DNA of 64,000 nt. Origin: Rhodospirillales bacterium. GTDB taxonomy: Bacteria > Pseudomonadota > Alphaproteobacteria > SP197. The stretch spans positions 544,523 to 608,522 of the forward strand of contig JACONG010000016.1 of NCBI GenBank assembly GCA_014323865.1. The letters are read 5' to 3'. The notes beneath the pieces were generated by a model. That model saw only the letters and a list, made by a program, of their open reading frames with translations, was not told the origin of the DNA and did not search any database. Every line of letters begins with the position of its first letter. Within the stretch, counting starts at the first letter, position 1. The position numbers and the translations under genes were made by a program. Positions 20,391-22,693 of this stretch are shown piece after piece.

Positions 20391-22557
20391 TCAGGCGAGA
20401 TCGAAGCGGTCGGCATTCATCACCTTCGTCCAGGCGGTGACGAAGTCGTGGACGAACTTCTCAGCGTTGTCGTCTTGGGCGTAGAGCTCGGCATAGGCGC
20501 GCAGGATCGAGTTCGAGCCGAACACTAGATCGACGCGCGAGGCCGTCCACTTGACCGCACCGATCGCGCAGCTCGTAGCCGCCCTTGCCCGCCGGACGCC
20601 ACGTGTTGGCCATGTCCGTCAGGTTGACGAAGAAGTCGGTCGACAGGGTGCCGCCGCCGTGGTTTGTGCCGAGCACCCGCATGCCACCGACCAGCACCGT
20701 CACCTCGACGGCCGTGAGGCCCATGAGCTGCGTGTGGTCGAGCAGGAGTTCCTCGGCGCTGACCACGTAGTCCTGCTTCACCCAGTTGCGCAAGCCGTCG
20801 TTGATCAGCTCCAGCGGAGCGAAGGACTCGACGTCCGTCTGCGCATCGGTTGCATCGCCGCGGCCGAGCGAGAAGGGCACGGTCACCACGACACCAGTGA
20901 CACTGGCCGCCTGTTCGACGCCGACATTGCCGGCAAGCACAATGACGTCGGCGACACTTGCACCGGTCTCGGCCGCGATCGGCTCGAGCACACCCAGCAC
21001 ACGGGCCAGGCGGTCGGGCTCGTTGCCTTCCCAGTCCTTCTGCGGTGCTAGGCAGATGCGCGCGCCGTTGGCGCCGCCCCGATTGTCCAAACCGCGGAAG
21101 GTGCGGGCGCTGTCCCAGGCCGTGGCGACCATGTCGCTGACCGAAAGGCCGCTCGCAGCAATTTTCGCCTTCACCGCCTCGACGTCGTAGCCGGTCGCAC
21201 CGGCGGGTACCACGTCCTGCCAGATCAGGTCCTCGGCGGGCACGTCGGGGCCGACGTAACGCGACTTCGGACCCATGTCGCGATGGGTCAGCTTGAACCA
21301 GGCACGCGCGAAGACATCCGAGAAGTGCTCGGGATCAGCGCGGAACTGCTCGGAGATCGCACGGTAGGTCGGATCTTCACGGAGCGCCATGTCGGCATCG
21401 GTCATCATAGGGTTGCAGCGGATCAAGGGATCCTCGACGTCGACCGGGCGGTCTTCCTCGGCGATCTCCTAGGGCTCCCACTAGTTTGCGCCTGCCGGGC
21501 TCTTGGTGAGCACCCACTCGTGGCCGAACAGCATCTCGAAGTAGTCGTTGTCCCACTGCGTCGGATGCGTGGTCCACGCGCCCTCGACGCCGCTCGTCAC
21601 GGTGTCGCGGCCGATGCCGCGGCTCGCCTTGTTGAGCCAGCTGAGGCCTTCGTCCTCGCCCTCGCCGGACTCGGGATCGGGGCCGACGTTGCCGGCATCA
21701 CCGTTGCCGTGAGCCTTGCCAACTGTGTGTCCTCCGGCGGTCAGCGCGACGGTCTCCTCATCATTCATGGCCATGCGGGCAAAGGTCTCGCGCATGTCCT
21801 GGGCGGTGCGCAGGGGATCGGACTTGCCGTCGACGCCCTCGGGGTTGACGTAGATCAGGCCCATTTGCACGGCGGCGAGCGGGTTCTCGAGCGTTTCGCT
21901 GCCGTCACCGTCGTAGCGGTCTTTGGCAAGCCAGTCTTTCTCGTTGCCCCAGTAGATGTCTTGCTGGGGTGCCAGATGTCCTCGCGGCCGAAGCCGAAGC
22001 CAAACATCTTCAGGCCCATCGATTCGTAAGCCATGTTGCCGGCTAGGATCATCAGGTCAGCCCAGTTGATATTGTTGCCATACTTCTTCTTGATCGGCCA
22101 CAGCAGGCGGCGCGCCTTGTCGAGGTTGCCGTTGTCGGGCCAGGAGTTGAGTGGGGGCAAAGCGCTGGTTGCCGGTGCCGCCACCACCGCGACCGTCAGC
22201 GGTGCGGTAGGTGCCGGCGGCATGCCCAGCCATGCGGATCATCAGGCCGCCATAGTGACCCCAGTCGGCCGGCCACCAGTCCTGGCTGTTGGTCATCAGC
22301 ACGCGCAGGCCGGCCTTGAGTGCCTCGACGTCGAGCGACTTCAGTTCCTCGCGGTAGTCGAAGTCCAGACCCATCGGGTCGGTCTTGGTGTCGTGCTGGT
22401 GAGGAATCTCGAGGTTGAGGGACTTCGGCCACCAGTCGCTATTCGACTGGGCCGATGCCGTCATGGCTCCGCGCATGACCGGACACTTGTGGTGCTGCCT
22501 GGTGACATTTCGTTCATGATGGTCTCCCTTTGTGTTGGTCGGCTCGGGTGCCGTCAC
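20391..22557 (-). pseudogene. katG: Catalase-peroxidase KatG, split over at least 5 reading frames
   Basis: All KatG regions are present in order. The N-terminus ([10 protein letters not shown]…[26 protein letters not shown]) is at 22557, followed by [24 protein letters not shown] at 22223, [12 protein letters not shown]…TVGKAHG at 21870, and the C-terminal domain at 21426. The last 60 aa ([29 protein letters not shown]…DRFDLA) are in another frame, ending at 20391. Confidence 0.75.
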
Positions 22558-22597
22558 GTCCGACGCCCGTGTGGGCCCGGCTTGATAAAAACATAAA

Positions 22598-22612
22598 TTA
22601 GAATAATTCTAA
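22598..22612. promoter_or_regulatory. Perfect 15-bp palindrome TTAGAATAATTCTAA in the katG upstream region (Irr ICE-like / PerR-like operator candidate)
   Basis: It is flanked by the outer inverted repeat CTTGAT…ATCAAG (22581–22618), in an AT-rich divergent promoter region between katG and coaBC. Confidence 0.35.
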
Positions 22613-22693
22613 ATCAAGAGTGGACTTTGTACGATTCCGTGAAAGATTAACGGCGCTGTCCTATATTGTGCAGTGCACAACAGGGTGAAACCG

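Follow-up and report, generated by a model that had tools for sequence, protein, structure and literature searches.

The katG locus

We analysed a 64,000-nt stretch of contig JACONG010000016.1 from a Rhodospirillales bacterium (hereafter the window), with a focus on its gene for the catalase-peroxidase KatG and on a palindrome in front of this gene. The katG gene occupies positions 20391–22517 of the minus strand, with its ATG at 22517–22515 and a TGA stop at 20393–20391. A Shine-Dalgarno sequence (GGGAGA, 22524–22529, minus strand) can be read 6 nt 5' of the ATG. The gene is broken in several places, and the palindrome (22598–22612), whose centre lies 88 nt upstream of the ATG, is perfect. 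Beyond it, the intact coaBC gene (22694–23899, plus strand, 401 aa) is transcribed divergently from katG. We consider it likely that katG was truly inactivated in this uncultured, marine-type Rhodospirillales/Rhodospirillaceae bacterium and that an ancestral Fur-family operator still stands in front of the dead gene.

Gene and lesions were delimited by tblastn with intact KatG, three-frame translation and peptide coordinates. In tblastn, the window katG covered residues 12–723 of the intact Rhodospira trueperi KatG (locus L004) colinearly at 69–87% identity, and three of its open reading frame (ORF) fragments matched the Pfam peroxidase family PF00141. That is, the two peroxidase-fold domains are both present and colinear with KatG, as the original prediction for this DNA had stated. 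It had also described the gene as spread across at least five frames. There are indeed five pieces, but they alternate between only two of the three minus-strand frames. Segment 1 (MNEMSPGS..) starts at 22517 and is followed on the same strand by segment 2 (HHKCPVM..QRFAP, 22494–22153), segment 3 (LNSWPDN..EDIWHP, 22151–21966), segment 4 (QQDIYWG..YELRDR, 21966–20560) and the last segment (20561–20394). A functional KatG would be expected to come from an uninterrupted ORF of about 720–740 aa; the window katG instead has its frame shifted four times and carries two in-frame TAG codons.

The first of the frameshifts (frameshift 0, 22486–22494) is the least direct. Here the ATG with its good Shine-Dalgarno sequence is out of frame with HHKCPVM. 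From this pair, and from comparison with the N-terminus of the intact KatG of an uncultured Rhodospirillaceae metagenome-assembled genome (MAG, locus L019), we infer that one base was lost, possibly from an A run; its restoration would give ..TTKCPVM. Frameshift 1 is an extra C in a C5 run (22153–22157, GCCCCCACTC) and frameshift 2 a C lost from a C run (21966–21969, CACCCCAGCAAGAC). Frameshift 3 (20559–20562) moves the final 56 codons to another frame, in good agreement with the single-base shift previously placed in the last 60 codons.

Further lesions, none of which the original prediction contained, leave the reading frame untouched. A TAG stop takes the place of an invariant Gln at 21481–21483 (..PAGAN-stop-WEP..), and a second TAG follows at 21469–21471 (WEP-stop-EIAEED). 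An in-frame deletion of 10 residues between NHGGG and TLSTDFF (20629–20664), recognized in the alignment, has removed two invariant columns. Finally, the catalytic distal Trp, expected in MIRMAWHAAG and invariant in 77 intact KatGs, is replaced by Gly (GGG codon, 22225–22227). The distal Arg-Trp-His triad required of a functional KatG is thus incomplete, and the lost Trp also belongs to the Met-Tyr-Trp adduct of the enzyme. The Arg and His of the triad, the proximal His (GGHTVGK), the Tyr (LIYVNPEG) and the Met (RMAMNDEE) are kept.

The tetranucleotide CTAG occurs five times within katG (20524–22045). Two copies make the TAG stops (in ACTAGT and CCTAGG) and three are rare CTA Leu codons, which would fit a recent G:C-to-A:T drift.

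Evidence for a genuine pseudogene

For comparison with functional enzymes, the frames were repaired and the resulting 709-residue product was aligned with the 77 intact KatGs, which had been recovered from genomes. Among these, 262 alignment columns are invariant, and the window KatG was altered at 14 of them. When the intact KatGs were treated likewise, the median was 0 and the maximum 4 altered columns. In a relative-rate test against the syntenic L019, the window KatG was more distant than L019 from 70 of the 76 outgroups (mean excess 0.025), and derived changes at conserved sites numbered 39 in the window KatG versus 24 in L019.

The sequence was also found in a second assembly. A metagenome contig of the Joint Genome Institute (JGI), Ga0189853_1000004, matches the window with 100% identity across 22.6 kb (10461–33057), every lesion included. 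Since this contig stops at window position 33057, the window must stem from another, longer assembly. A search for a closer relative with the same katG returned only this JGI copy, and the next best matches were 75–77% identical.

Even with all frameshifts repaired, katG would still hold two nonsense codons, the lost Trp, the 10-residue deletion and the 14 changes at invariant positions. Because the TAG stops, the lost Trp, the deletion and the invariant-position changes are not explicable as indel errors, we are highly confident that katG is a genuine pseudogene and no assembly error. For annotation, katG should consequently be called a pseudogene and not an assembly error in need of repair. 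Two further explanations of the broken frame were rejected: reassignment of TAG, since the standard code reads long ORFs across the window without interruption, and programmed frameshifting, given four shifts, nonsense codons and the loss of a catalytic residue.

With regard to the host, the window GyrB is NCBI protein MBC6441034.1 ('Rhodospirillales bacterium' MAG), and the nearest other GyrB (87% identical) belongs to a Rhodospirillaceae MAG that occurs in Tara data as well. On very long contigs, the best database matches to the KatG fragment again fall in split katG genes, at L203 (about 4500–6700), L204 (3917–6089) and L205 (4240–6401). They could be additional katG pseudogenes or else artefacts of long-read indels.

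The palindrome and the coaBC-katG spacer

The palindrome consists of the 7-nt arms TTAGAAT and ATTCTAA around a central A (TTAGAATAATTCTAA), with 100% complementarity between the arms, so that the perfect 15-bp palindrome reported upstream of katG was confirmed. On the katG strand, the surrounding 17-mer reads TTTAGAATTATTCTAAT and agrees at 16 of 17 positions with TTTRGAAYNRTTCYAAA, the published consensus of the iron control element (ICE) bound by Irr (PMC1698941). Palindromy alone is unremarkable: the window holds 11 perfect 7-1-7 palindromes versus 6.8 ± 2.6 in shuffled sequences. What exceeds chance is the specific sequence, as TTAGAANNNTTCTAA at up to two mismatches matched the 64-kb window once, with 0.07 matches expected.

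The original prediction had described the palindrome as nested in CTTGAT…ATCAAG. Both arms exist (22581–22586 and 22613–22618), but their distances from the palindrome are unequal (11 nt and 0 nt), and they are not kept in relatives. For this asymmetry and lack of conservation we rejected them as part of the operator; the outer repeat has probably arisen by chance. In the katG orientation, its ATCAAG arm offers a possible −35. It overlaps the −35 of the candidate katG promoter that we propose from manual reading and alignment with L019 (22590–22617, minus strand), composed of TTGATT (22617–22612), a 16-nt spacer and TATGTT (22595–22590). Eight of its 12 positions match, the palindrome fills its spacer, and TAYGTT is kept in L019. 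The promoter scan yielded the promoter of the coaBC-dut operon only, a promoter-like site on the plus strand (GTGAAA-17-TATATT, 22639–22667) that is conserved in L019.

The spacer contains a second perfect 7-1-7 palindrome at 22666–22680, 54 nt from that of katG, with the arms TTGTGCA and TGCACAA around a central G (TTGTGCAGTGCACAA). It overlaps the end of the coaBC −10 and runs just past it, and five of its seven arm pairs are kept in L019.

Conservation of the palindrome in relatives and metagenomes

The relative L019 carries an intact katG and shares synteny with the window along 12.9 kb, at 70–83% nucleotide identity. Both share the order thiF, DUF1272, dut and coaBC, divergent from katG, ubiB, ubiE, fpg, rpsT and dnaA, and their CoaBC proteins are 77% identical. 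L019 has a one-mismatch copy of the palindrome 5' of katG. Within the poorly conserved coaBC-katG spacer, the palindrome with the following TAYGTT is one of three conserved islands. The Rhodospirillales MAG L008 and the Denitrobaculum locus L011 have perfect copies 5' of katG, and in L204 (a 1.15-Mb contig, GC 0.68) the identical 17-mer lies about 155 nt upstream of its katG. Across 77 genome katG loci, matches with up to two mismatches numbered 8 in 32.8 kb of katG-upstream DNA versus 4 in 894 kb elsewhere.

Metagenome contigs scanned for ATTAGAATNATTCTAAT returned 120 loci, many of which are AT-rich and probably match by chance. In four of the 27 contigs with a GC content of at least 0.49, the motif stood directly upstream of katG. 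In others it stood directly 5' of genes for monofunctional catalase, Dps, bacterioferritin (Bfr), rubrerythrin, peroxiredoxins (2), the iron exporter MbfA (3) and a class-V aminotransferase that is possibly a SufS-like cysteine desulfurase (2), and it preceded six Fur-family regulator genes. This is the set that would be expected of Irr and/or PerR regulons with autoregulated regulators.

Together, the comparative evidence and the published ICE consensus (PMC1698941) support the assignment of the palindrome as a Fur-family operator of the Irr/PerR type, in line with the resemblance to the Irr ICE and to PerR-type boxes noted in the original prediction. As in known ICEs, the predicted site lies at the promoter of a haem-enzyme gene, and it is conserved upstream of katG in L019, L008, L011 and L204. 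Irr and the ICE are documented in alphaproteobacteria, and katG is among the predicted Irr targets of Rhizobiales and Rhodobacterales (PMC1698941). In Rhodobacter sphaeroides, experiments have demonstrated that Irr binds boxes of this kind at mbfA and ccpA (PMC3413700). The window site resembles the ICE of Bradyrhizobium japonicum (PMC1698941) and the Irr-boxes of R. sphaeroides (PMC3413700) in being palindromic, near or in the promoter of a haem enzyme and in an alphaproteobacterial host, but it differs from them in its target, which is katG, and dead.

Alternative explanations

Several observations weigh against an inactivated katG behind a Fur-family operator. Frameshifts 1 and 2 sit in C4/C5 homopolymer runs, which are typical sites of sequencing errors, and both assemblies may stem from the same reads. 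No second operator site was found in the 64-kb window at up to two mismatches; of the genes that might be expected to carry one, mbfA, bfr, ccpA, suf and hemA, none was seen within the window. The candidate katG promoter falls under the scan threshold, and L008, L011 and L204 do not share its −35. A search for Fur, Irr and PerR genes in the window and 80 katG loci was negative for the 64-kb window and for the 13-kb loci L008, L011 and L019, where no Fur-family gene came up. The motif-bearing metagenome contigs probably belong to mixed taxa. Finally, Rodionov et al. predicted just ccpA or a rubrerythrin-like gene, and not katG, as Irr targets in Rhodospirillales (PMC1698941).

The position of frameshifts 1 and 2 in C runs, together with the split katG genes of other long-contig assemblies (L203–L205), which are possible long-read indel artefacts, would suit the view offered in the original prediction that the frameshifts are sequencing or assembly errors and that the organism has a working katG controlled by Irr or PerR. 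We reject this view as very improbable. The damage outlasts frame repair, since neither the two in-frame TAG codons nor the distal Trp-to-Gly change, the 30-nt deletion or the 14 altered invariant columns are indel errors; it is confined to particular genes, as long adjacent genes are unbroken (818-aa gyrB, 949-aa ORF); and the two assemblies agree base for base at katG. Even less credible is a palindrome that is a mere chance feature of AT-rich promoter DNA and has no protein partner. Perfect 7-1-7 palindromes are common in the window, as given above, and the GC content around this one is 0.38, but the specific sequence is expected far less than once per window, is kept in orthologous and non-orthologous katG promoters and is enriched beside peroxide and iron genes in high-GC contigs. 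A different thought is that the palindrome is still under selection for another role, for example the control of the divergent coaBC-dut operon. It lies just about 27 nt upstream of the coaBC −35, and the coaBC-katG arrangement is conserved in L019 along with the palindrome. In L008, L011, L204 and the metagenome contigs, however, the motif goes with katG and not with coaBC. We know of no link between Irr or PerR and CoA synthesis, and neutral retention would already account for the intact palindrome, so that a role in coaBC control appears improbable.

It is harder to decide which protein would bind the site. The chief competitor of the Fur family is OxyR, the usual activator of katG in alphaproteobacteria. 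Its half-site is ATAG-N7-CTAT, and a full site comprises four ATAG-type elements at helical-turn spacing over about 37–45 bp. The core tTAG-N7-CTAa of the palindrome resembles such a half-site, 29 of the 77 katG loci have a divergent oxyR, which is common but not required beside OxyR targets, and several have ATAG-N7-CTAT dyads 5' of katG. Yet the window palindrome makes up just one dyad: neither flank offers another ATAG/CTAT pair at the spacing expected, and no oxyR adjoins katG in the window, where the divergent neighbour is coaBC, or in L008 or L019. L011 carries, besides the palindrome and apart from it, an OxyR-box-like element beside oxyR that is conserved across oxyR-katG spacers. Moreover, mbfA, bfr and genes of Fur-family regulators are preceded by the same 17-mer, as would suit Irr regulons and a Fur-family protein that regulates its own gene. 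An OxyR (LysR-type) site is therefore unlikely, if marginally less so than a role in coaBC control.

Within the Fur family, the regulator could be a peroxide-sensing PerR-type protein instead of the haem- and iron-sensing Irr, a possibility that we take seriously but regard as the less probable. The PerR box of Bacillus subtilis is TTATAATNATTATAA. The palindrome has the same 7-1-7 architecture and is identical to it at 13 of 15 positions, differing by one base per arm (G for T at position 4). The motif-linked katG, catalase, peroxiredoxin, Dps and rubrerythrin genes would form a classic PerR regulon, in which the regulator's own gene also fits. A PerR-type regulator has a structural Cys4 site (two CxxC pairs) and often controls its own gene; an Irr-type one has a His-rich motif and no Cys pairs. 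Of the models compared, those of PerR gave the highest scores for Fur-family proteins encoded beside the motif, three of which have CxxC pairs (L145, L154, L185). All scores, however, are far below the curated cut-offs for either family (for PerR, those of NCBIfam), Irr models score nearly as high, and L160 has an Irr-like protein without Cys pairs beside the same motif. MbfA, Bfr and the SufS-like gene, which carry the window 17-mer in metagenome contigs, are typical Irr targets (PMC1698941, PMC3413700). Since the host is an alphaproteobacterium, a group for which the sources used here document Irr and its ICE but not PerR, we hold Irr to be roughly twice as likely as PerR.

The OxyR-box-like element of L011 deserves a brief description. 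It lies within 4724–4905, beside the divergent oxyR, spans about 40 bp and reads roughly TTATC-N6-7-ATYAGAAAATNCAA-N..-TTAT. We found it in about 20 alphaproteobacterial loci (L012, L013, L018, L048, L075 and others), and we presume that OxyR binds there in this group. The element and the ICE-like palindrome share an ATTAGAA half.

A Fur-family repressor controls katG in the furA-katG arrangement of mycobacteria and in perR-katG arrangements. The loci L203, L047 and L078 resemble these in having a Fur-family gene directly upstream of katG; the window differs, as no regulator gene is adjacent to its katG.

Age of the inactivation and survival of the palindrome

How can a perfect operator stand before a dead gene? 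Two estimates of the neutral change were made. The 12 substitutions over about 260 invariant codons (about 590 non-synonymous sites) correspond to about 0.02 changes per site, and the relative-rate excess corresponds to about 0.01. Neutral change in katG since its inactivation would thus amount to about 1–2% per site. At this level, a 15-bp element stays unaltered with a probability of about 0.75–0.85. A perfect operator is therefore expected under neutrality, and selection is not needed for its persistence. We regard the intact palindrome as a probable relic, whose perfect state is no sign of continuing function or selection. This qualifies the earlier description as a very recent pseudogene whose regulation has not decayed: pseudogene and undecayed site are both real, 'very recent' is better put as an excess divergence of about 1–2% per site, and the lack of decay is what chance alone would give. 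More generally, this simple arithmetic illustrates that a perfect operator before a dead gene is no proof of continuing function.

These findings suggest the following history, in which the binding regulator, the position of the promoter, the mode of repression and the neutral-decay estimate are our inferences. A Fur-family dimer, Irr-like or PerR-like, would have bound the 7-1-7 palindrome in the ancestor and would still do so in L019 and similar relatives. Overlapping or abutting the core katG promoter, this repressor may have blocked katG transcription and so kept the haem enzyme KatG off, under iron or haem scarcity if it followed Irr logic or without peroxide if it followed PerR logic. 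Iron or haem sufficiency, or peroxide, would then have lifted repression. In the window lineage, selection on katG was presumably lost, after which four frameshifts, two nonsense codons, a deletion and active-site substitutions could accumulate. The operator would have remained intact as a relic, since most 15-bp sites are unaltered at 1–2% decay, and not because it was maintained.

In essence, this is an ordinary case of gene loss with an operator of a known kind. Mildly new are the combination of katG with an ICE in Rhodospirillales and the cluster of decayed, oxygen-related genes described below. With this site, katG is added to the genes with ICE-type operators in an order for which a minimal Irr regulon had been predicted. 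Two wider readings are speculative and less likely than not: that the Irr-like protein of marine Rhodospirillaceae is mainly a regulator of peroxide defence with katG as a principal target, or that the lineage is shedding genes of an aerobic lifestyle. If the former were true, katG would join the 'minimal Irr regulon' of Rhodospirillales (ccpA or a rubrerythrin-like gene); if the latter, early genome erosion would have been caught with regulatory sites still intact.

Neighbouring genes and other decay

Many genes near katG are intact, namely coaBC, dut, thiF, fpg, ubiE, rpsT, dnaA, dnaN, recF and gyrB. The cluster gyrB-recF-dnaN-dnaA, followed by rpsT, fpg and ubiE, occupies 9484–16000, which places the decayed genes near the likely replication origin. 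The cumulative GC skew over the window was flat and did not locate an origin, and Rfam at gathering thresholds returned no RNA family anywhere in the window.

Pseudogenes of katG occur in bacteria with eroding genomes, for example in Mycobacterium leprae. The window shares with M. leprae the multiple frameshifts and stops in a colinear katG and the presence of other pseudogenes nearby; the two bacteria belong to different phyla. Convergent with katG lies a ubiB pseudogene (18651–20221, plus strand) that is more degraded than katG. It is split into at least six pieces over all three frames, contains in-frame stops and, compared with the intact UbiB of L019, has lost about 100 residues. Its inactivation looks older than that of katG. 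Between dut and thiF, a DUF1272 gene (24355–24618, plus strand) is interrupted by an in-frame stop (ICT-stop-PVTFCADC); it is 56% identical to its L019 ortholog, versus about 80% for neighbouring genes, and was called as fragments of 26 aa and 49 aa in the JGI annotation. At about 29.3–31.0 kb there is a string of short orphan ORFs, one of them with a weak match to Ring_hydroxyl_A, and the string resembles what would be left of a ring-hydroxylating dioxygenase. With katG included, four decayed genes thus lie within about 12 kb, a cluster that hints at the loss of oxygen-related functions in this lineage.

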